The notes: generated by a model from the letters alone, not told the origin. A stretch of DNA of 54,408 nt from Candidatus Doudnabacteria bacterium (GCA_023246005.1 JAHFJG010000008.1:1-54408); one strand, 5' to 3'; counted from the first letter of the stretch, positions 3,341 to 37,144 are shown. Program-made: numbers and translations.

Positions 3341-3785
3341 TCAACATCACGCTATCTCCAACCTTAATTTTATTCTTCTCACTCCAGCCGGCGTTAACTT
3401 CGACAACGCTATCAATGTCTTCATTAGGCACATAAGTTTGCAGAGGCAAAACCGGCACATTCGGCGTAATTTCAACAACCTTGGCGTTTCGAACCCAAAT
3501 AAAATCCAGTGGAAATTTCATATCTTTCATCCAAAAACCATACTTGTCTGGATTTGAAAAGACAAATAGCATAGCATCATTTTCCGCCAATGAATCGCGG
3601 CCAGACAACCCTTGTGTCCGCGCTGCCTGGGTGTCTGCAACTTGGATATTTAAAACATGTCCACCGATGATTAGGGTATTTTTCTTATTGCAAGCCGCAG
3701 CAAAAAAGGTTAAAGATAACAAAACTAAAAGAATCTTATAATTCCTTATTCCTAATTCTTTATTCCTAATTCCTATATTATTCAT
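3333..3785 (-). CDS. DUF192-family protein, probable lipoprotein
   Basis: The start was chosen at ATG 3785 (signal ...LSLTFFAAAC). GLSGR...MLFVF...GFWMKDMKFPLDFIWV matches DUF192/COG1430. Confidence 0.75.
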   Translation of the reverse strand: MNNIGIRNKELGIRNYKILLVLLSLTFFAAACNKKNTLIIGGHVLNIQVADTQAARTQGLSGRDSLAENDAMLFVFSNPDKYGFWMKDMKFPLDFIWVRNAKVVEITPNVPVLPLQTYVPNEDIDSVVEVNAGWSEKNKIKVGDSVMLTP

Positions 3786-4824
3786 AATTCTTTTTTTCTT
3801 TATATGCTGAAAAAATTGATGCAAAAATCGCCAGCATGACTAAAAACAAAATGACTAGCGCAAATAATTTGCCTCGGGATTGCAAAAACAATGCTGACAC
3901 GCCAAAAATACCGGTTAAAACATATAAAAATATGACAGCTTGGGGTTGACTAAATCCAATTTCAAGCAATTTGAAATGCAAATGCTTGCGATCCCCGCCA
4001 AACGGTGATTGCCGTCGAGCCAGCCTTAGTCCAACCACCCAAATCATATCAAGCAAGGGAATTCCCATAATCAAAAGAGTGGTTGCGATTTTTCCCCCGG
4101 AAACAATGGACAGCACTGCCAGCATGAAGCCGGCCAGAGTCGAGCCGCCCTCGCCCAAATAAATTTTGGCCGGGTAAAAATTCAAAATCAGAAATCCCAG
4201 CAGGCTTCCGGCAAACGTAATGGCCAAAAACGCAGTTTGCGGTTGAGCAACTTGAGGAGTCAGAGATAAACCAAACAAAACCAAAGCGCCGATCACGGAA
4301 ATACCGGTAACTAATCCATCCATGCCATCCAACAACTTAGTCGTATATGTCATGGTCATAGTCCAGGCAAAAACTATTACACCGGAAATCAAAGGAGTTA
4401 ACAAAATCACAGAATTATTCAGAGGATTATGAATGCTCACAGCGCTAACTCCAGACGTCACAAGGACTAGACTTGCCATGGTCGGAAAAATAATAGAATA
4501 TTTGGCAGGCAGTCGATAGCGATCGTCAAGGTACCCTCCAATCATGAGAATCATGCCGCCAATCCAAATTCCCAATAAAACCTTAATGGGGATATTGCCT
4601 GTAAGCAAATAGCCGCCAAGGAGCCCTAAGCCAAAACTGACCAAAAAGAAGCTGGCGAAAATCGCGATTCCGCCAAGTGTCGGTGTGGCTTGTTTATGGA
4701 ATCGCCTCTCATCATCCGGCAGATCCAGAATCTTTCGCTTAACAGCAATTCTCGAAACTATAAAGGTTCCGACAAATGAAATGACAAAGGCTAGTGTAAA
4801 TGAGGCAAAATAAATCAAACGCAT
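3778..4824 (-). CDS. Glycosyltransferase family 4 (WecA/MraY-like polyprenyl-phosphate sugar-1-phosphate transferase)
   Basis: This polytopic membrane protein has the motifs LDDRYRL, LDGMDGL and NFYPAKIYLGEGGS. Confidence 0.85.
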   Translation of the reverse strand: MRLIYFASFTLAFVISFVGTFIVSRIAVKRKILDLPDDERRFHKQATPTLGGIAIFASFFLVSFGLGLLGGYLLTGNIPIKVLLGIWIGGMILMIGGYLDDRYRLPAKYSIIFPTMASLVLVTSGVSAVSIHNPLNNSVILLTPLISGVIVFAWTMTMTYTTKLLDGMDGLVTGISVIGALVLFGLSLTPQVAQPQTAFLAITFAGSLLGFLILNFYPAKIYLGEGGSTLAGFMLAVLSIVSGGKIATTLLIMGIPLLDMIWVVGLRLARRQSPFGGDRKHLHFKLLEIGFSQPQAVIFLYVLTGIFGVSALFLQSRGKLFALVILFLVMLAIFASIFSAYKEKKNYE

Positions 4825-22542: not shown

Positions 22543-22571
22543 ATTATAGCCTGTCTTGACTTTTAGGGCAA
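22543..22571 (-). promoter_or_regulatory. mntH promoter (predicts a leaderless mRNA)
   Basis: TTGCCC (22571-22566) is followed by a 17-nt spacer and TATAAT (22548-22543). The ATG lies 7 nt downstream. Confidence 0.5.
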
Positions 22572-22584
22572 AAACATTCATGAT
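22556..22584 (+). promoter_or_regulatory. Candidate promoter of orphan cassette B
   Basis: TTGACT (22556-22561) is followed by a 17-nt spacer and CATGAT (22579-22584). The -10 is weak. It interdigitates with the mntH promoter. Confidence 0.35.
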
Positions 22585-22654
22585 GTATTGTCTCTGACAA
22601 AGACGAAAACCGCTTCGCCAACTCGGCCAAGTGACATTAGGAGGAGTACAAGTT

Positions 22655-23119
22655 ATGGCAAAGGTATCTGTCAAACGGTACGTTGAGCAGGTCCGTGACG
22701 GAAGCGAGTACAAAGGTTACCTGAAAATCGCCGAGACCACATTGGACTATGAGCTGAGGTTCGACATCCCGATTGACAAGCTGGATGATTCTGAACTCTT
22801 AGATGGAGTTCATGAAATTCGCCGGGTCTTCCAGCTGACTGTGAAGCGAAACGGAAAGAGGATTGAACTCACCGATGAAGAATATGGCTTCTTCTTCCGG
22901 TTGCTCGTTTTGTTCGCAGTCGAGTTCTACAACAATCCGCGAACTCGTGAAAACAACCAAGGCCTTCTGGGAATGACCTTGCGTGGCAAGGGAGAGATAT
23001 CAGCTTTCGGAGTTTCCTCTTCGATCGGGATTACGAGCAGCAACTCGTATGACATCCCGTCTGGACTGTGTGAGACCTTGAACGCGCCGAAGTTTGGGTG
23101 CGCAATCAACGGCACCTGA
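22655..23119 (+). CDS. Orphan protein B (154 aa), G+C-enriched
   Basis: An AGGAGG SD (22639-22644) lies 10 nt before ATG 22655. The ORF track starts it at GTG 22631. No family was recognised. Confidence 0.5.
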   Translation: MAKVSVKRYVEQVRDGSEYKGYLKIAETTLDYELRFDIPIDKLDDSELLDGVHEIRRVFQLTVKRNGKRIELTDEEYGFFFRLLVLFAVEFYNNPRTRENNQGLLGMTLRGKGEISAFGVSSSIGITSSNSYDIPSGLCETLNAPKFGCAINGT

Positions 23120-23130
23120 ACAATCATGCT

Positions 23131-23214
23131 GGGGACGAAGGTCATCTTGACTTCGTCCCCTCCCCACCATCCCCAAACCCCGACACTACGATCGGGGGTA
23201 AGAGGGATTTTTTT
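23131..23214 (+). terminator. Compound GC-rich terminator of cassette B
   Basis: A 10-bp hairpin GGGGACGAAG/CTTCGTCCCC (23131-23160) is followed by CCCCGA/TCGGGG and a T7 run (23208-23214). Confidence 0.55.
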
Positions 23215-23251
23215 ATTGCCCAAATCTACCCAGGCGAATGCCGAGGTGGGT

Positions 23252-27625: not shown

Positions 27626-28861
27626 TTATGCTCTAAGCGTTTTTGTTAAGTTTTTAATATTTACGATTTGAGATTCTTTGCTATCGCGAGCTTTAATTTC
27701 TACAGAGTCTTCTTTCAAGGTCTTGTCTGACATCAAAATTCTAATCGGAATCCCAATTAAGTCAGCATCAGCAAATTTTTCGCCGGCCGAGGCATCCCTT
27801 TGATCATATAATACTGAAAATTTTTGTTCCTGTAAAGTTGCATATAATTTATCCGAAGCCTCCCTATCAGACGCAATATTTATAAGATGCAAATCAACCG
27901 GAGAAACGGATTTGGGCCAGATAATTCCTTTATCATCATGGAATTTTTCTACAATCACGCCCATTAACCGTGAAATTCCCAAACCATAACACCCCATCAC
28001 TGGATATTGCTTCTTGTTATCCTTGTCTTTAAAACCCAAATCAAAGTCTTGGCCGTATTTTTGGCCTAAATCAAAGACATTGCCGACCTCTGACGCTTTG
28101 GCAAAATTTAGTTTTCCATTGCCACACTTTGGGCACTTGTCCCCGGTTTTTTGTTTAGCAATTTCCAGATTCACGCAAAACTCGCAAACATCGCAATACA
28201 AAATATTATCCTCGCCGGCATCAGTCAGCACCATGAACTCATAGGAAATTTTGTTGCTGAAAGCGCCTCCAGATGCTTCTGTGACTTTGGCTACTAAACC
28301 AATCCGCTCAAAAATTTTCAGATAAGCTTGTTTGACTATTTCGTAATACCTTTCAAAATCCTGTTGGTTCTCATGAAAGCTGTACATATCCTTCATGTAA
28401 AATTCCCGACCGCGAAGAAGGCCGGATTTGGATCGCAATTCATCACGATACTTCCAGCCGATTTGATATACGCTTTTTGGCAAATCTTTATAAGTATCCA
28501 CATACTTCATCACCAGCGGCATGACCACTTCTTCTTCACTTTGGCCCAAAGCGTAATCCTTTTCGGTTCGGCTTTTGATTTTAAATAGAACATCCACTTT
28601 GTCCCAAGCGCCGGTTTTTTTCCAAATTTCCGCCGGATGCAAAGCCGGCATCAAAATCTCTTGTCCGCCATTTGCATCCATTTCTTCCCGCACAATTTGG
28701 GCGATTTTTTTCAAAGTCAAAAAGCCCAGAGGCAAATATGAATATACGCCAGCCATAAGTTTATTGACAAAACCAGCCCGAACCAAAAGTTGGGCGTTCG
28801 TGGTTTCCTCGTCTTTCGGCGCTTGCCGCAAAGTTTTTGTGAATAATTCAGATTGCAACAT
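27626..28861 (-). CDS. proS: Prolyl-tRNA synthetase (short form without INS editing domain)
   Basis: The start was chosen at ATG 28861 (MLQSELF...). It has a class IIa core. A CxxC-N18-CxxC mini-insert sits where bacterial ProRS carries the INS domain. Confidence 0.9.
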   Translation of the reverse strand: MLQSELFTKTLRQAPKDEETTNAQLLVRAGFVNKLMAGVYSYLPLGFLTLKKIAQIVREEMDANGGQEILMPALHPAEIWKKTGAWDKVDVLFKIKSRTEKDYALGQSEEEVVMPLVMKYVDTYKDLPKSVYQIGWKYRDELRSKSGLLRGREFYMKDMYSFHENQQDFERYYEIVKQAYLKIFERIGLVAKVTEASGGAFSNKISYEFMVLTDAGEDNILYCDVCEFCVNLEIAKQKTGDKCPKCGNGKLNFAKASEVGNVFDLGQKYGQDFDLGFKDKDNKKQYPVMGCYGLGISRLMGVIVEKFHDDKGIIWPKSVSPVDLHLINIASDREASDKLYATLQEQKFSVLYDQRDASAGEKFADADLIGIPIRILMSDKTLKEDSVEIKARDSKESQIVNIKNLTKTLRA

Positions 28862-28867
28862 AAAGTA

Positions 28868-28896
28868 ATTATAGCAAGCCGCAAAAACCTTGACAA
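28868..28896 (-). promoter_or_regulatory. proS promoter (predicts a leaderless mRNA)
   Basis: TTGTCA (28896-28891) is followed by a 17-nt spacer and TATAAT (28873-28868). The ATG lies 6 nt downstream. Confidence 0.55.
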
Positions 28897-28918
28897 AAGG
28901 GCGCAAAATACTTTAATG
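28890..28918 (+). promoter_or_regulatory. Promoter of cassette C
   Basis: TTGACA (28890-28895) is followed by 16-17 nt and TTTAAT/TTAATG (28912-28918). Its -35 overlaps the proS -35 by 5 bp. Confidence 0.5.
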
Positions 28919-29148
28919 TGCAGTGTTCATCAAAGGATTACGAAGTAATTGAAGCTTGCGTCCTTGGCTATATTGCCAGACATGAAGAGCAGCGTATTTT
29001 TCAGGTTCCCGAACGCCGAGAATTAGTTCTGAACATGAGCAAAGGGATCGGTCAATTGCTACATGTGCTCATCATGAAGGCCTTGCAAAAGCGCCTCAGC
29101 AACGCGCACGAACGTGAAGTGTTTCATTGGGCTCAAACGACCGATTAA
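28918..29148 (+). other. Cassette C transcription unit; coding status unresolved (76-codon GTG ORF or ~300-nt RNA)
   Basis: The GTG start coincides with the predicted -10, so it may not be transcribed. There is no SD. G/C-ending codons occur only in the second half. The unit ends at a strong terminator. Confidence 0.3.
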
Positions 29149-29171
29149 ATCCTTCTCACTCTCATCGCTCA

Positions 29172-29222
29172 CCCCATGCCATACCAGACGCAAAAACGTC
29201 TAGGTACAGGGGTTTTCTTTTT
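29172..29222 (+). terminator. Intrinsic terminator of cassette C
   Basis: The structure is CCCC..TACC-[AGACG/CGTCT]-GGTA..GGGG followed by TTTTCTTTTT. The tail GGGGTTTTCTTTTTGCC is identical to that at 34659-34675. Confidence 0.65.
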
Positions 29223-29268
29223 GCCAAAAAGCGAGAAACAAAAATTGACATCACATCAATCTTACTTA

Positions 29269-29308
29269 ATTCTACGCATTTTGACCGATCGGTCAATTTA
29301 CGTATAAT
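29269..29308. promoter_or_regulatory. Palindromic operator TTGACCGATCGGTCAA with -10-like hexamers on both sides (3' of the regulator gene)
   Basis: A perfect 16-bp palindrome lies at 29281-29296. On the + strand TTGACC-16-TATAAT ends at 29303-29308. On the - strand TTGACC-16-TAGAAT ends at 29274-29269. Confidence 0.55.
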
Positions 29309-29841: not shown

Positions 29842-29845
29842 ATCA

Positions 29846-29885
29846 AGTATACGTGTTTTGACCGATCGGATATTTTACGTATAAA
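29846..29885. promoter_or_regulatory. Operator/promoter region upstream of paralog 1
   Basis: The 27-nt core at 29858-29884 matches 29281-29307 at 24/27 positions, in direct orientation. On the - strand a TATACT -10 lies 4 nt before the ATG. On the + strand there is TTGACC-16-TATAAA. Confidence 0.5.
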
Positions 29886-32721: not shown

Positions 32722-33455
32722 GTGTTTATCATCAAATTAGTTAGCAATAATTTTGAATTCACATTCTGATCCAGATATCGTCGGGACAAAGCGACTTGGC
32801 TGATTTTTTGAGCCAAATTTTTCGAAGCGCTGATATGCAGTTCAGTTTGCAGAATTTTGAGCCAAAGATCTAAAATATTTTTTATTTCTGAAGTTTCCAA
32901 ATCGGCAATATCATAAGCGGCAATTAATTTATCAGCCAGTTGTGCTTGAGTAAAAATTTTATAAAACTCCGCCGCTCTGCTAGATTCTTCAGTGACTTCT
33001 TCCGGCCTTTCCAAAACACCAAAAGTTATTTTTTGCGCACGAGACAAAATTGTTTTTGGCAGACGCTGAGCATTGCTTGTAATCAAAATAATATATGTGT
33101 AGTTCTTTGGCTCTTCCAGCGATTTGAGCAAAGCATTGGCTGCTTCGGTAGTCATCTCATCAGCGTGATTAATCACCGCGACTTTATATTTGGCTGAATA
33201 AGGCTTAAGAGCAAGTTTATAGATCAAATCGCGAATCTGCTCAATCTTAATGCCCTCGTTGCTATTGATTTCCAAAAGATCAGGATGGAAATCCTTGTCT
33301 GACCCAATTAACTCATGCGCCAATTTCATGGCAATGGTTTTCTTGCCAATACCTTCAGGCCCGGCAAAAATAAAAGCATGCGCCAGCTTGCCACGCTCAA
33401 GGCCGTTTTCCAAAAATTCTAATTGTTTCTTATGCCCCAAAATACCTTCAAACAT
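32718..33455 (-). CDS. holB: DNA polymerase III delta' subunit
   Basis: It has an AAA+ clamp-loader fold with the motifs HAFIFAGPEGIGKKT and SRAQ. Confidence 0.85.
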   Translation of the reverse strand: MFEGILGHKKQLEFLENGLERGKLAHAFIFAGPEGIGKKTIAMKLAHELIGSDKDFHPDLLEINSNEGIKIEQIRDLIYKLALKPYSAKYKVAVINHADEMTTEAANALLKSLEEPKNYTYIILITSNAQRLPKTILSRAQKITFGVLERPEEVTEESSRAAEFYKIFTQAQLADKLIAAYDIADLETSEIKNILDLWLKILQTELHISASKNLAQKISQVALSRRYLDQNVNSKLLLTNLMINT

Positions 33456-33461
33456 GGCTGA

Positions 33462-33490
33462 ATTATAACAGTTTGGCCTAGTATTGACAA
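33462..33490 (-). promoter_or_regulatory. holB promoter (predicts a leaderless mRNA)
   Basis: TTGTCA (33490-33485) is followed by a 17-nt spacer and TATAAT (33467-33462). The ATG lies 6 nt downstream. Confidence 0.55.
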
Positions 33491-33512: not shown

Positions 33513-33550
33513 TTTATGTTGCACATTCCGTGCATGAAGGAGGAATATGC

Positions 33551-34039
33551 TTGAAGGGCATGATCGTTTACTCATTCGCTTGGCGAAAAAAAGGACACAG
33601 TCCTTGCAATATTCGCTTAGCAGAAGGAGCTAAGCGAATCATCGAAGCCCAGGACGAACCAGTTTTGGTTTTCGCCCAGCGCACTACAGCGCTGGTTCTC
33701 AAAGAGCTTAGCGTGGAATGTCAGATCGTACCGAAGCGGTCAAGTTACGAAGGATCCGAAGTGCTCACTCGGCAGCCCGCAGAGGTATTTAAGGAAAACG
33801 GAATCACTGAAGTCATTCCCGTGGCTCAGCCGTTTCTGCAACTGACGAAGTGCATTCAACTGGTTCACAAGGAAGGTTTTCGGACTCCGTCGTTTTTCAA
33901 ACTCGTGTCCCTGATCGGTTGGATCGGATTTGATCGAGAATCAGTTCAACCTTGGACGCGAGGTCTGTTCCGGCTGGTGTTCTACACTGCCAGACAGATT
34001 CTGTTCAGCTACAAGCCACCGCCAGAACTTTCAGAATAA
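33551..34039 (+). CDS. Orphan protein D (~160 aa), G+C-enriched
   Basis: An AAGGAGG SD (33537-43) lies 7 nt before TTG 33551. Alternative starts are GTG 33530 and ATG 33560. Codon usage is foreign (CTG, CGG, CCG). Any DUF218/YdcF-like resemblance is only weak. Confidence 0.5.
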   Translation: MKGMIVYSFAWRKKGHSPCNIRLAEGAKRIIEAQDEPVLVFAQRTTALVLKELSVECQIVPKRSSYEGSEVLTRQPAEVFKENGITEVIPVAQPFLQLTKCIQLVHKEGFRTPSFFKLVSLIGWIGFDRESVQPWTRGLFRLVFYTARQILFSYKPPPELSE

Positions 34040-34180
34040 CCTCCACTCCGTTAGCAAAACGGGAAATGAGTAATTTGCTTTAGAGAATCTATTTCTTCTC
34101 AAACTCTCGAATGAATCGCTCAGGACTCGCGGCATGTCGCTGCGGTCCCCCGTCTGCGGACGGAGAGGGAGGGTAGGCCG

Positions 34181-34540
34181 ATGTCGAACCCGAACCTGGT
34201 GGCCCCGGAGCTCGAGACCCTGGCGCGCGACCTTTCGCAGTCGTCTTCCGTTGAGGTGTTCTACCTCGACGACCAAGGCGCACCGCAGAAGGCCGCGTAC
34301 TACTCCCAATCATTGGGGGACGCCGTCCGTATCGAGATGAAACCACACCTCGTGGTAACTCGTCAGATACAGGACGACTCCGACCCCGAGAGCTGGAGTA
34401 CCGAAGATGTTTCCATCCCACTCGAAAGAGTGCTGATGGCCAACATCTCGGTGAGCGATGAATGGGCTCCCTCCGGGGAGATCCAGTCATCGCAGTGGGT
34501 CAACGGCCCCCACGGCAAACTCCTGCGGCTCGTGCCGTAG
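34181..34540 (+). CDS. Orphan protein E (119 aa), strongly G+C-rich
   Basis: A GGGAGGG SD lies 7 nt before the ATG. G+C is 219/360, and 94/120 codons end in G/C by hand count, which is coding-type periodicity. No family was recognised. Confidence 0.65.
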   Translation: MSNPNLVAPELETLARDLSQSSSVEVFYLDDQGAPQKAAYYSQSLGDAVRIEMKPHLVVTRQIQDDSDPESWSTEDVSIPLERVLMANISVSDEWAPSGEIQSSQWVNGPHGKLLRLVP

Positions 34541-34576
34541 GAGTTCAGGGGACCCGCGGCAATCATGCAAAGTGCT

Positions 34577-34621
34577 GATGGGACATTCTCCCATCCCCGG
34601 CAACAGCTTGTCTGTTGCCGG
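34577..34621 (+). other. Two GC-rich hairpins in the 3' UTR of gene E
   Basis: The hairpins are GATGGGA/TCCCATC (34577-34595) and CCGGCAACAG/CTGTTGCCGG (34597-34621). They lie directly upstream of the terminator. Confidence 0.5.
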
Positions 34622-34626
34622 GCACG

Positions 34627-34672
34627 CCCCGTACCGTCCGCCTCCGGCGGACTGGTGCGGGGTTTTCTTTTT
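34627..34672 (+). terminator. Intrinsic terminator of the D-E operon
   Basis: The structure is CCCCGTACC-[GTCCGCC/GGCGGAC]-GGTGCGGGG followed by TTTTCTTTTT. It has the same architecture and tail as 29172-29222. Confidence 0.7.
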
Positions 34673-34724
34673 GCCCAAAATTATTACTAACTGATTATTA
34701 GTAATATATTACATATTGTCTATA

Positions 34725-34754
34725 TTTTTGTCCGATCGGTCAGTTTTTTAGACA
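34725..34754. promoter_or_regulatory. Operator unit 3' of regulator paralog 2
   Basis: TTTTTGTCCGATCGGTCA... matches 35246-35275 at 27/30 positions, in direct orientation. It ends 1 nt before the regulator's stop codon. Confidence 0.55.
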
Positions 34755-34755
34755 G

Positions 34756-35229
34756 CTAAAAATTATAGTTTATTTTTCCATCAATAATTGAAACATGTGG
34801 TCGAATATTTAATTCTTTAATTATTTGCTTAATATCATCAGTAACAATAAACGGCGCGATCAGTACGCTCTTTTGTAAGTTAATATAACCGCTTCTTTGC
34901 AAATGCCGACGAAAAATTGTGCGTTGCCTGGATTTTTCTTCAGGAATATCAAAAATTATAATGGTACTCAAGCCATCTTGCCTATTTCTTTTTTGGATTG
35001 GTTTATGTAGTAAGCCCCTGCCTTTTGCTGTTAAAAAATATGCGCTTCGACTTCCTGATTTTTTCTTTAAAATCATACCTCGTTTTTCTAGCCTATTAAG
35101 CGTAGCATAATAGGTTGCTCTTGGAATTGGCCTAAATCGCAATTTACCTGGAGGAGTGGTTATAAAAGTTAACAAGCCGTCCGCGGCCTCATCTATCATT
35201 TGTAGTAAATATTCGGCATAACTATTCAT
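34756..35229 (-). CDS. wHTH + Cas2/VapD-like-fold regulator (PaaX-like), paralog 2
   Basis: It has the motifs YYATLNRLEKRGMILKK...YFLTAKGR and TIIIFDIPE..RRHLQRSGYINLQKSVLIAP..VSIIDG. By eye it is about one-third identical to 29320-29841. Confidence 0.7.
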   Translation of the reverse strand: MNSYAEYLLQMIDEAADGLLTFITTPPGKLRFRPIPRATYYATLNRLEKRGMILKKKSGSRSAYFLTAKGRGLLHKPIQKRNRQDGLSTIIIFDIPEEKSRQRTIFRRHLQRSGYINLQKSVLIAPFIVTDDIKQIIKELNIRPHVSIIDGKINYNF

Positions 35230-35235
35230 ACATTG

Positions 35236-35277
35236 ATTGTATAATTTTTTGTCCGATCGGTCAATATTTTATACATT
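35236..35277. promoter_or_regulatory. Divergent promoters sharing the palindromic operator of paralog 2
   Basis: On the - strand TTGACC (35264-59) is followed by a 17-nt spacer and TACAAT (35241-36), with the ATG 6 nt downstream (leaderless). On the + strand TTGTCC (35249-54) is followed by a 17-nt spacer and TACATT (35272-77). Confidence 0.55.
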
Positions 35278-35308
35278 GTCACAAATCTTAATAGATAAAA
35301 TCGACAAA

Positions 35309-35378
35309 AATCAGTAGGTTCTTTTGGATTGATCCTGCAACACTTTTGCGAGGTTCAACTGAACTTACTGATTTTTTT
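35309..35378. terminator. Bidirectional long-range hairpin (13 bp) flanked by A-run and T-run
   Basis: AATCAGTAGGTTC (35309-21) pairs with GAACTTACTGATT (35361-73), with one G-T pair and a 39-nt loop. AAAAA lies upstream and TTTTTTT downstream. Confidence 0.5.
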
Positions 35379-35391
35379 CGTGCGAATTAGG

Positions 35392-35532
35392 CCCAGTATA
35401 TCAACTTCGATAATGGTCTGTCTGCTTTTGCGATCTAGTAAAATTAAACTCTCAATTTTACGTCGATGAACGATCTAGCTTTGATCGGTCCAACCATTTG
35501 AACGCAAAAGCGATCGAAGTTGTATTACTGGG
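35392..35532. repeat. Palindromic ~145-nt intergenic element, copy 2
   Basis: The arms are CCCAGTATATCAACTTCGAT (35392-411) and ATCGAAGTTGTATTACTGGG (35513-32). Inner pairs are AATGGT/ACCATT and GCTTTTGCG/CGCAAAAGC in the same crossed order as copy 1. Confidence 0.6.
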
Positions 35533-35664
35533 TGGGCTTAACCATAATCAGCTTAGATTATCAAAATTTGAGCGTCAAAATAATTTATTATTTATCAAAA
35601 ATATAGCTTTTTTCATAGCGCTGTGTAGAACCTGTGAGCAAACCGTGAGTAAGCAGTGGAGTGG

Positions 35665-35697
35665 ATCCCCGCTTTCGCGGGGATGGTTTTTATTTTT
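35665..35697 (+). terminator. Intrinsic terminator, + strand
   Basis: ATCCCCGC-TTTC-GCGGGGAT is followed by GGTTTTTATTTTT. There is no U-run on the opposite strand. Confidence 0.65.
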
Positions 35698-35725
35698 AAA
35701 ATGCTCAAAAATAAAAAACCAACTT

Positions 35726-35960
35726 AAAAACCACCTTACGGTGATTTTTAATTGAACCGGTGTGCTGCCAAACCCGCTAACTTCGCTCTTACGAACTCCA
35801 CTAGCCTGGGAATTGGTCCAAGAGGTTGCCCTTACTTGTTCTACACCCAAGTCGTTTCTTACTTAAGCGTACCAATTCGGATTCAACAGTGCCTGATCCT
35901 CGAACAGCCTTTTTAGAGCCGTCCTGCCTAATAAAGATTGCTCTTTACCAAGACCATGGT
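35726..35960 (-). ncRNA. Candidate ~235-nt structured RNA of unknown class
   Basis: A consensus promoter lies upstream and a GNRA-capped hairpin plus U5 lies at the 3' end. Several hairpins can be drawn by hand, including UAAAGA-GCAA-UCUUUA and a 38-nt CCC..GCUA..UUCG/CGAA..UAGC..GGG stem. The only ORF runs through two terminators. Confidence 0.55.
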
Positions 35961-35966
35961 GAAAGC

Positions 35967-35995
35967 ATTATAGAAACGACAAAAATATCGGTCAA
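35967..35995 (-). promoter_or_regulatory. Promoter of the candidate structured RNA
   Basis: TTGACC (35995-90) is followed by a 17-nt spacer and TATAAT (35972-67). The -35 is embedded in ATCGGTCAA, which is an operator half-site. Confidence 0.65.
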
Positions 35996-35996
35996 G

Positions 35997-36025
35997 GAAA
36001 AATAAAAACCTATGCAAATCATAGG
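35997..36025 (-). terminator. Intrinsic terminator downstream of the second mreB
   Basis: On the minus strand CCUAUG-AUUUG-CAUAGG is followed by UUUUUAUUUUUU. Confidence 0.6.
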
Positions 36026-36038
36026 ATTTAAAGATTTT

Positions 36039-36090
36039 TTATCCAAATTGTGCATAAACTGTGCGTAAACTTTGGATAATTTGTGCAGAA
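36039..36090. promoter_or_regulatory. Cluster of five DnaA-box-like 9-mers
   Basis: TTATCCAAA (36039-47) and its inverse TTTGGATAA (36071-79) have one mismatch each to TTATCCACA. The + strand also reads TGTGCATAA, TGTGCGTAA and TGTGCAGAA, the reverse complements of TTATGCACA, TTACGCACA and TTCTGCACA. Confidence 0.3.
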
Positions 36091-36136
36091 AAAACCGCAT
36101 TAATTGCAAATGTCAACCTAGCAGGCGAAGTCTGGC

Positions 36137-37144
36137 CTATTTACTAGCCAAAATGCTCTTTTTGTAACTATCCAAATTATCCAAAGCCACGCCAGTGCCT
36201 TTCACAACGCACAAAATCGCGTCTTCAGCCACATAAGCTGGCACCCCGGTTGATTGGCCAATTAGTTTATCCAAATTTTTCAGCAAAGCAGTGCCGCCGG
36301 TCAGAACCATACCCTTGTCTATAATGTCTGCTGCCAATTCAGGCGGGGTTTCCTGCAGGACAGAACGAATGGCTTTGATTATTTCTCTAAGTTCTTCTTG
36401 AATGGCTTCCACGACTTCGTTTGTGGAAATTGTCACAGTCTTGGGCAAACCTTGCAGCATATCGCGCCCACGGATTTCCATGGTCAGTTCTTTTTCCACT
36501 GGCATGGCCGAGCCAATTCTGATTTTAATTTCTTCAGCCGTTCTGTCCCCCACTGCCAAACCGTATTTTTTTTTGATAAAATCCGCAATCGCCTGGTCCA
36601 TTTTATTACCCGCTACCCGCACAGAGGTTTGAGTGACAATACCGCCAAGGGACAGAATCGCCACATCAGTCGTCCCGCCGCCCATATCTATAACCATATT
36701 GCCAGAGGCTGCAGAAATATCAATGCCAGCGCCAATAGCCGCGGCCACTGTTTCCTTAATTACAAAAGCCGCTTTTGCCCCTGCGGCTTGAGCCGCGTCA
36801 ATCACGGCCCGGCGTTCCGTGGAGGTAATGCCTCCTGGAACTGAAATCATGACTTCTGGGCGAAAAAATCTGACATTGCCAACGGTCTTGTTTATAAAAT
36901 AACGAAGCATAGCTTCGGTTATGCGATAATCAGCAATCACACCATCCTTCATTGGTCGATGCGCTACAATCGTATCAGGAGTCCGCCCCAGCATTTCTTT
37001 GGCTTCCGCTCCCACAGCCAAAATTCGATTATCAATAATCGAAATCGCAACCACGGTTGGCTCGTTGATGACTATGCCTTTTTTCGGCACATAAACTAAG
37101 GTGTTGGCTGTGCCTAAATCAATCCCAATCTTTTTTAAAAACAT
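36137..37144 (-). CDS. MreB-like actin homolog (second paralog)
   Basis: The start was chosen at ATG 37144 (MFLKKIGIDLGTANTLVY). It has the motif DMGGGTTDVAIL. It lies downstream of murA-murB. Confidence 0.88.
   Translation of the reverse strand: MFLKKIGIDLGTANTLVYVPKKGIVINEPTVVAISIIDNRILAVGAEAKEMLGRTPDTIVAHRPMKDGVIADYRITEAMLRYFINKTVGNVRFFRPEVMISVPGGITSTERRAVIDAAQAAGAKAAFVIKETVAAAIGAGIDISAASGNMVIDMGGGTTDVAILSLGGIVTQTSVRVAGNKMDQAIADFIKKKYGLAVGDRTAEEIKIRIGSAMPVEKELTMEIRGRDMLQGLPKTVTISTNEVVEAIQEELREIIKAIRSVLQETPPELAADIIDKGMVLTGGTALLKNLDKLIGQSTGVPAYVAEDAILCVVKGTGVALDNLDSYKKSILASK

Follow-up and report, generated by a model that had tools for sequence, protein, structure and literature searches.

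The 54,408-nt stretch of DNA analyzed here (the window; coordinates are counted from its first letter) carries a minus-strand open reading frame (ORF), 34756-35229, which encodes a predicted regulator referred to as W2 (paralog 2). A paralogous regulator, W1 (paralog 1), is encoded in the same window, and loci of homologues from other genomes are designated L followed by a number. Direct copies of a 30-nt unit flank the W2 gene at 34725-34754 and 35246-35275. They are the only two copies in the window, lie on the plus strand, and match each other at 27 of 30 positions; 100 shuffled versions of the sequence contained no match to it. The downstream copy ends at 34754, one base short of the stop codon at 34756-34758. 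Both the bracketing pair and its position next to the stop codon had been claimed in an earlier note on this DNA and are borne out. The pair extends to 40 nt (34715-34754 and 35236-35275, with a start-to-start distance of 521 nt), over which 85% of the positions (34 of 40) are identical.

Each copy corresponds to a full 38-bp dyad composed of 6-bp outer arms, A/T spacers, and a central core, CCGATCGG; the second dyad arm falls outside the 30-nt frame considered earlier. Only the arms and the core are complementary, whereas the spacers are not. Between the upstream copy (U) and the downstream copy (D), the arms show one A/C difference and, at the mirrored position, one T/G difference (34720/34751 versus 35241/35272), and the symmetry of these two changes leaves each copy a perfect arm dyad. 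Five occurrences of CCGATCGG were found in the window, four of them at the W1 and W2 sites and one within an ORF, where the arms are missing, and neither a third copy nor a solo site of the pair is present within the 54 kb. Scanning metagenomes with the exact 18-mer produced 24 single matches, only one of which adjoins a family member, namely, the W2 orthologue L081 (59% identical), in which 20 nt of the U core and spacer are conserved without change. A generic dispersed repeat, similar to repetitive extragenic palindromic (REP) elements, that flanks the gene by chance would account for the palindromic form only, and we consider this explanation scarcely credible, since only two copies occur in the 54 kb and the core is largely confined to paralog sites. 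Within the window and the metagenome scan, a REP-like repeat was ruled out, there being two copies per paralog in 54 kb, and the check that the earlier note had proposed for such a repeat thus came out in favor of a gene-specific site. The same site is present twice, is specific to the gene, and in one of its copies lies over the promoter of this gene.

W2 is a truncated PaaX-like regulator that consists of a winged helix and a PaaX_M domain; it ends after this middle domain and has no PaaX C-terminal effector domain. The Pfam family PF20803 (PaaX_M, "PaaX central Cas2-like domain") matched W2 with an E value of 1.1e-13, and its scores of 51.5 bits for W2 and 57.7 bits for W1 are above the gathering cut-off of 24. 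The N-terminal PaaX winged-helix family PF07848 remained below its gathering score (18.5 versus 24.8 bits); the matches of this region to PadR, PaaX, and TrmB winged helices are weak, and the PadR and TrmB scores are similar to that of PF07848. The score for TIGR02277 was 38.1 bits, compared to a cut-off of 264.55, and the match covers only positions 39-148 of the 279 profile positions. An AlphaFold2 model of W2 (predicted local distance difference test score of 78) contains helices and a beta-wing, followed by a beta-alpha-beta-beta-alpha-beta arrangement. Foldseek identified E. coli PaaX (8a39) as the best match in the PDB, followed by many Cas2 structures with a probability of 1.0. AspA and TubR match the N-terminal domain, for which AspA (1e-4) and PadR were the best sequence matches. 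The description of the protein in the earlier note as a winged helix-turn-helix joined to a Cas2-like fold is in agreement with these data.

The Cas2 profiles PF09827 and TIGR01573 scored below their cut-offs for W2 (21.7 versus 23.8 and 23.0 versus 24.5, respectively) and just above them for W1 (27.4 and 27.7), a PADLOC Cas2 match reached 6e-8, and the motif IIIFDIPE of beta-1 contains an invariant Asp, D94. The window contains no tandem array of the type seen in CRISPR loci, no other cas genes accompany the Cas2-like domain of W2, and cas1 was absent from the neighbors in 82 loci, which correspond to 80 homologue loci taken from species-representative Patescibacteria genomes plus W1 and W2. 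Relatives of W2 come from Patescibacteria, the nearest being from Candidatus Doudnabacteria, and some are annotated as Cas2; these public "CRISPR-associated endonuclease Cas2" labels are probably over-annotations. The family is large: the A1 profile detected about 2,961 clusters (at 50% identity, E ≤ 1e-10), nearly all of 150-200 aa among the matches listed, and several paralogs are present per genome.

The upstream copy coincides with a predicted promoter. In a scan for matches to a 12-base consensus, the minus-strand sequence TTGACC-17-TACAAT scored 10/12, and 6 nt separate its -10 hexamer from the ATG at 35229, which predicts a leaderless messenger RNA for W2. This promoter had been noted before, and it is retained in two orthologues, as TTGACC-17-GACAAT in L081 and as TTGACC-18-TAATAT in L105 (53% identical to W2), in both cases with the ATG 6 nt further on. 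The pattern TTGN3-N17-TAN3T-N6-ATG occurs four times in the window, compared to 0.99 expected occurrences, and three of these are the starts of proS, holB, and W2 (minus strand, 28859-28896, 33453-33490, and 35227-35264, respectively), indicating that leaderless starts recur in this genome. For proS, the start of the longest ORF (TTG at 28906) is probably wrong and the ATG at 28861 is the true start. The U site covers both the -35 and the -10 hexamer, and binding to it would shut off W2 by promoter occlusion, as deduced from the analogous case of PaaX and the Px promoter. A different layout was seen in Daviesbacteria, in which the -35 hexamer TTGACA doubles as the left arm, the promoter spacer contains the core, and TACAAT serves as the -10 hexamer. 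In both the Doudnabacteria-type and the Daviesbacteria-type layouts the site overlaps a sigma-70-like promoter near the ATG, and an operator placed over the core promoter fits autorepression. Because U overlaps a promoter that is conserved in two orthologues, autorepression appears to be the best-supported reading.

The idea that the palindrome also serves a divergent promoter on the plus strand is not well supported. The plus-strand hexamers TTGTCC-17-TACATT match the consensus at 8 of 12 bases, which falls under the scan threshold, and are the mirror image of the minus-strand promoter. The corresponding positions of L105 read TTAGCC-17-GTAGCT, so that the hexamers are not conserved. They are probably a by-product of a dyad that carries a promoter.

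The generality of this arrangement was assessed by comparing, at each locus, the 130 nt around the start codon with the 130 nt around the stop codon; the null was derived from the start flank of one locus and the stop flank of another. The highest-scoring direct match between the two flanks reached at least 14 in roughly 55 loci out of 82; in the null distribution, the mean score was 7.9, the 99th percentile 13, and the maximum 15. When frames were centered on the dyad and an identity of at least 24/40 was taken as the criterion, pairs were detected in 58 of the 82 loci, and an unconstrained palindrome search returned dyads as long as 52 nt at the two ends of the genes, far above the null. The logo derived from the 58 pairs has a near-invariant core, RCGATCGY (with the variants CGGCCG and CTATAG), and spacers of low symmetry, one side being rich in T and the other in A. 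The outer arms (positions ±12-18) vary between loci, with an identity of 0.76-0.90 within pairs and a dyad symmetry of 0.78-0.88. The mean identity amounts to 31.3/40 within a pair but 16.6/40 between loci, and in 51 of 58 loci the best match for a site is its own partner. Where arm positions differ between the two copies on both mirrored sides, the dyad is kept in both copies in 19 of 32 cases, one of which is the U/D pair of W2 itself, whereas at most one third would be expected by chance; in the spacer, this is the case for 9 of 43 double changes. The result for the arms implies that each copy is separately under selection for symmetry over a span of about 30 bp. Bracketing by an operator pair therefore appears to be a trait of the family, which is well supported by comparative evidence.

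The copies are in direct orientation in 34 loci and inverted in 10, with 12 ties. Four loci (L020, L005, L015, and L078) have flanking copies that agree at 100% of their 40-41 nt, even at asymmetric and spacer positions. Seven loci (L003, L006, L015, L044, L046, L049, and L060) possess a third copy of their own site, and one of them a fourth; the extra copies lie mostly some 100-250 nt from the pair, or about 0.5-0.9 kb away in L049 and L060. This suggests multi-operator arrays in some members.

Perfect palindromes of 36-52 nt in several members (e.g., L050, L033, and L043) could also point to elements that act at the RNA level, i.e., transcribed hairpins for processing, stabilization, or termination. 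These might be cut by the Cas2-like domain, given that Cas2-like folds include ribonucleases (3exc and 2ivy, and some Cas2 and VapD proteins). However, mirror mismatches show no bias for G.T over A.C (95 versus 83), the sites are not followed by a run of T (mean of 3.7-3.9 T per 10 nt), and the complementarity of the window sites does not include the spacers. Furthermore, U holds the promoter and would be situated upstream of the predicted transcription start, and the two copies have their sequence in common, which hairpins need not have. An RNA-level function is consequently very improbable, and the reading of the sites as RNA hairpins or terminators was ruled out by the missing G.T bias and T-run.

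The downstream copy deserves separate consideration. In most loci the center of D is located +3 to +35 nt from the stop codon (median of 22), but anything from 2 to 1173 nt separates D from the next gene. Being tied to the stop codon and variable relative to the next gene, D belongs to the regulator unit. In Daviesbacteria, D is the better palindrome of the two and has no -35 hexamer, so that it looks like an operator only and not like a promoter. An alternative is that U and D are tandem promoter-operator units, of which U drives the regulator and D the next gene or operon, originally holB-BNR-frr-rseP; the protein would then regulate itself and a downstream housekeeping neighbor, which overlaps with autorepression. 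The preference for direct over inverted copies agrees with this proposal, as does the co-directional downstream neighbor in 40 of the 56 loci with pairs. In addition, the downstream copy of L105 reads TGGACG-17-TAATAT and is followed by holB, and the downstream copy of W1 is the better promoter match of its pair (TTGACC-16-TAGAAT, 10/12). Against it stand the linkage of D to the regulator stop codon, the Daviesbacteria copies, and the canonical leaderless promoters that holB and proS have of their own at their ATGs; moreover, in the window D is now separated from holB by a convergent cassette of 1.2 kb that includes a terminator. We regard tandem units as rather unlikely, and D is probably an auxiliary operator involved in looping or insulation.

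Comparison with orthologous loci helps to delimit the unit. The neighbors of family loci are ordinary housekeeping genes, and synteny is stable across genera: W2 and L105 are both located between mreB and holB, and W1 and L005 (68% identical) between rseP and proS. The gene order is murB-murA-mreB, 1.2 kb of non-coding sequence, regulator, holB, BNR, frr, and rseP in L105, and frr-rseP-regulator-proS-mreB in L005. The GC-rich cassette that separates the downstream copy from holB or proS in the window is absent from both L105 and L005, which identifies the cassette next to W2 (the D-E cassette of the earlier note) as a lineage-specific insertion outside the regulator module. That D faces the terminator of this cassette, as had been pointed out, is hence incidental; in L105 holB directly follows the regulator.

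Stable synteny also bears on the possibility that the gene is a selfish cassette, in which the winged helix targets an active Cas2-like nuclease to the direct repeats and the gene is excised or copied through cleavage or through recombination between these repeats. The mostly direct orientation of the copies, the four loci with identical copies, the invariant Cas2-type Asp (D94) in FDIPE, and the several paralogs per genome in a large family would all be in line with such an element. If true, this would be a minimal mobile element based on the Cas2 fold and would explain the many paralogs per genome. Yet the conserved position between ordinary housekeeping genes speaks against mobility, no family member was found in IMG/VR viral contigs, and the 54-kb window contains no solo site or additional copy. 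We give this possibility very little credence.

The sites also differ between paralogs. In dyad-centered 40-nt frames the identity within pairs is 33/40 for W2 and 32/40 for W1, whereas the best match across paralogs is 22/40; over its full 40-nt copies the W1 pair is 83% identical. Identity within pairs exceeded that across pairs in 11 of 11 comparisons of paralogs from the same genome (10 comparisons in other genomes plus W1 versus W2). Together with the preference of sites for their own partner, this confirms the earlier statement that the pairs of the paralogs are distinct. W1 and L005 agree in recognition helix and in arms, whereas W2 and L081 differ in helix residues and in arms but have an identical core. 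Judging from such comparative evidence, the interpretation as operator pairs with paralog specificity appears well supported.

The model that we consider fairly probable, on the basis of these sequence comparisons, is that of a minimal PaaX-type autorepressor bracketed by its own operators. A dimer, or a dimer of dimers, would bind a private 38-bp tripartite operator. Its outer arms of 6-7 bp, about 30 bp apart, would carry the paralog-specific information, and its A/T-rich spacers would flank the central RCGATCGY core common to the family. D would most likely act as an auxiliary operator that raises the occupancy of U via a DNA loop of about 520 bp; alternatively, it may be a roadblock that insulates the small gene from the surrounding housekeeping operons. 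Same-genome paralogs, having diverged in arms and recognition helix, should each see their own pair only.

Several points weigh against this model. About 24 of the 82 loci have no clear pair, and the sample is biased because loci were retrieved via the motif IFDIPE[EAD]K. Start-codon calls were crude, which makes the distance between site and start uncertain where it exceeds 40 nt. The 8-bp invariant core is too short for two winged helices, and the 100% identity of the copies in four loci exceeds what an operator needs, which suggests gene conversion or recent duplication. A partial Mantel test in which the arms were compared with the recognition helix and wing, the C-terminal domain being controlled for, gave a partial r of 0.07, and the converse test performed as well, so that this test could not attribute arm divergence to the winged helix over general divergence or demonstrate co-variation beyond shared descent. 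Finally, we infer every functional step of the model.

Table 1. Positions of the regulators, their sites, and adjacent predicted elements in the window
Feature	Position	Strand	Description
Upstream operator U (predicted)	35238..35275		TGTATA-N26-TATACA; center 35256/35257; gene-strand core TGACCGATCGGACA
Downstream operator D (predicted)	34717..34754		TGTCTA-N26-TAGACA; center 34735/34736; gene-strand core TGACCGATCGGACA
Regulator W2, 157 aa	34756..35229	-	Winged helix ~1-75; Cas2-like PaaX_M ~85-152
W2 promoter (predicted)	35236..35264	-	-35 TTGACC 35264-35259; 17 nt; -10 TACAAT 35241-35236
Mirror promoter-like hexamers	35249..35277	+	TTGTCC-17-TACATT; 8/12, below scan threshold
Regulator W1, 173 aa	29320..29841	-	41% identical to W2 over 115 aligned residues
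W1 upstream site	29845..29884		Arms TATACGT / ACGTATA; gene-strand core ATCCGATCGGTC
W1 downstream site	29268..29307		Core GACCGATCGGTC
Conserved structured RNA (candidate)	35290-35578; L081 ~215-535; L105 ~3760-3910	-	Between mreB and regulator

Next to the upstream copy lies a non-coding hub of about 360 nt (~35300-35657). It is about 70-76% identical between the window and L081, and its indels are not multiples of three. Compared to shuffled sequences, its predicted fold is stable on both strands (z = -7.5 for the plus strand and -5.4 for the minus strand), and the helices 35392-35411/35513-35532 and 35302-35326/35356-35380 show compensatory changes between the two sequences, again on both strands. 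W2, L081, and L105 share a promoter on the regulator strand (TTGACG-17-TAAGCT, TAAACT, and TAAGAT, respectively; in the window, the -35 is at 35578-35573 and the -10 at 35555-35550), which is followed by GGTTAAGCC, as well as a long hairpin (35380-35302 in the window) with a U-run just before the operator; the central helix domain is missing from the L105 RNA. No hit above any gathering score was obtained with Rfam, either for the whole window at the gathering threshold or for 35200-36150 at E ≤ 10, and the window contains no transfer RNA or transfer-messenger RNA. Because the promoter is conserved on the minus strand, this strand is favored, and the best reading of the hub is a putative minus-strand small RNA of about 250 nt rather than a plus-strand transcript fired from the operator. 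Since this adjacent RNA has a regulator-strand promoter of its own, the earlier suggestion of one palindrome shared by two divergent promoters is weak. Another candidate small RNA is located upstream of the hub RNA (window ~35724-35995, minus strand; L105 ~3380-3660), with the minus-strand promoter TTGACC-17-TATAAT (35995..35967, 11/12) and a minus-strand terminator (35751..35724). The block GGAGTYCGTAAGRGCGAAG...GCAGCACACCGGT is common to the window and L105, and in L105 it also follows TTGACC-17-TATAAT.

The window, in a genome with 40% GC, contains three small GC-rich plus-strand cassettes (33520-34700, 28918-29230, and ~22550-23225), two of which adjoin a regulator. The cassettes at 28918-29230 and 33520-34700 start at a TTGACAAAAG promoter that mirrors the -35 hexamer of the neighboring gene, and have nearly identical terminator tails, GGGGTTTTCTTTTTGCC(C)AAAA, at their ends. 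In the third cassette, only a version of this tail with three mismatches is present (23204-23220), and the motif GGGGTTTTCTTTTTGCC was not found in the 80 homologue loci. No match in PADLOC or PHROGs was obtained for the cassette ORFs (169, 119, 76, and 154 aa), nor, for the first three of them, in Pfam or NCBIfam. The cassettes are missing from the orthologous loci L105 and L005, which marks them as insertions. An inverted repeat of 21 nt (32735-32755 and 34676-34696, 90% complementary) spans holB and the D-E cassette; it is probably due to chance, since one of its arms is inside the holB coding sequence.

To our knowledge, almost nothing has been established experimentally about transcriptional regulation in the Patescibacteria (candidate phyla radiation). 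The layout described here recurs in most of the relatives examined and offers a testable handle on regulation in uncultured, ultra-small bacteria. A large family would possess its own cis-code at each gene, composed of private arms and a shared CGATCG core. The predicted matched pairs of protein and operator are a ready set for studying how the specificity of paralogs diverges, and the family could supply orthogonal repressor parts. The retention of a second predicted operator at the stop codon represents an unusual and testable architecture, be it for looping or insulation, and the PaaX-type identity of these proteins corrects widespread "Cas2" annotations.

W2 shares features with several known systems. 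It resembles Cas2 and VapD in the ferredoxin-like beta-alpha-beta-beta-alpha-beta fold, the conserved Asp in beta-1 (within FDIPE in W2), and the weak profile matches, but Cas2 is a stand-alone protein of about 90-100 aa encoded beside cas1 and a CRISPR array, whereas the domain is fused to a winged helix in W2. The N-terminal match links W2 to PadR, AspA, and TubR, which are dimeric proteins whose palindromic binding sites lie at the genes that encode them or upstream of these, but which carry different C-terminal dimerization modules. AspA- and TubR-type proteins have a role in DNA segregation. There is no sign of such a role at W2, where no gene for a partner ATPase or GTPase is present and the context consists of chromosomal housekeeping genes.

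With respect to the arrangement of sites, DNA looping systems provide a comparison. In the cases of lambda CI at OL and OR, which flank cI-rexAB, of lac O1/O2/O3, and of gal OE/OI, a repressor gene or promoter is located between two operators for the same protein, with spacings from a few hundred bp up to a few kb; of these, one lies over the promoter and the other raises the local concentration. The W2 pair may function in a similar manner, as far as this analogy carries, but differs from these systems in that the second operator directly follows the stop codon of a 0.5-kb gene and is conserved in the family.

Closest to W2 is PaaX (PDB 8a39 and 3l09), which represses phenylacetate catabolism in E. 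coli and Pseudomonas and likewise has an N-terminal winged helix followed by a Cas2-like middle domain. No description of the W2 family was found in the searchable literature on PaaX with Cas2, Patescibacteria, or Saccharibacteria. According to a review, the E. coli PaaX protein recognizes TGATTC-N27-GAATCA and, by sterically hindering RNA polymerase, represses transcription from Px, its own promoter (PMC9493321). Its inverted 6-bp half-sites, about 27 bp apart, are thus comparable to the predicted 6-N26-6 arrangement of W2, which also overlaps a promoter, and this geometric match, coming from a relative studied by experiment, is the strongest outside support for the operator reading. PaaX differs from W2 in several respects. 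It has about 316 aa, compared to 157 aa for W2, which does not have the C-terminal phenylacetyl-CoA-binding domain and hence has no known effector. Instead of paa genes, mreB, murA, holB, rseP, frr, and proS are found nearby, and the PaaX operator has no counterpart of the near-invariant central CGATCG core. Furthermore, the sites described here bracket the gene of the regulator itself, in Patescibacteria hosts that possess several paralogs per genome. As judged from these similarities and differences, W2 appears to be a PaaX-type repressor in a truncated, self-bracketing version.

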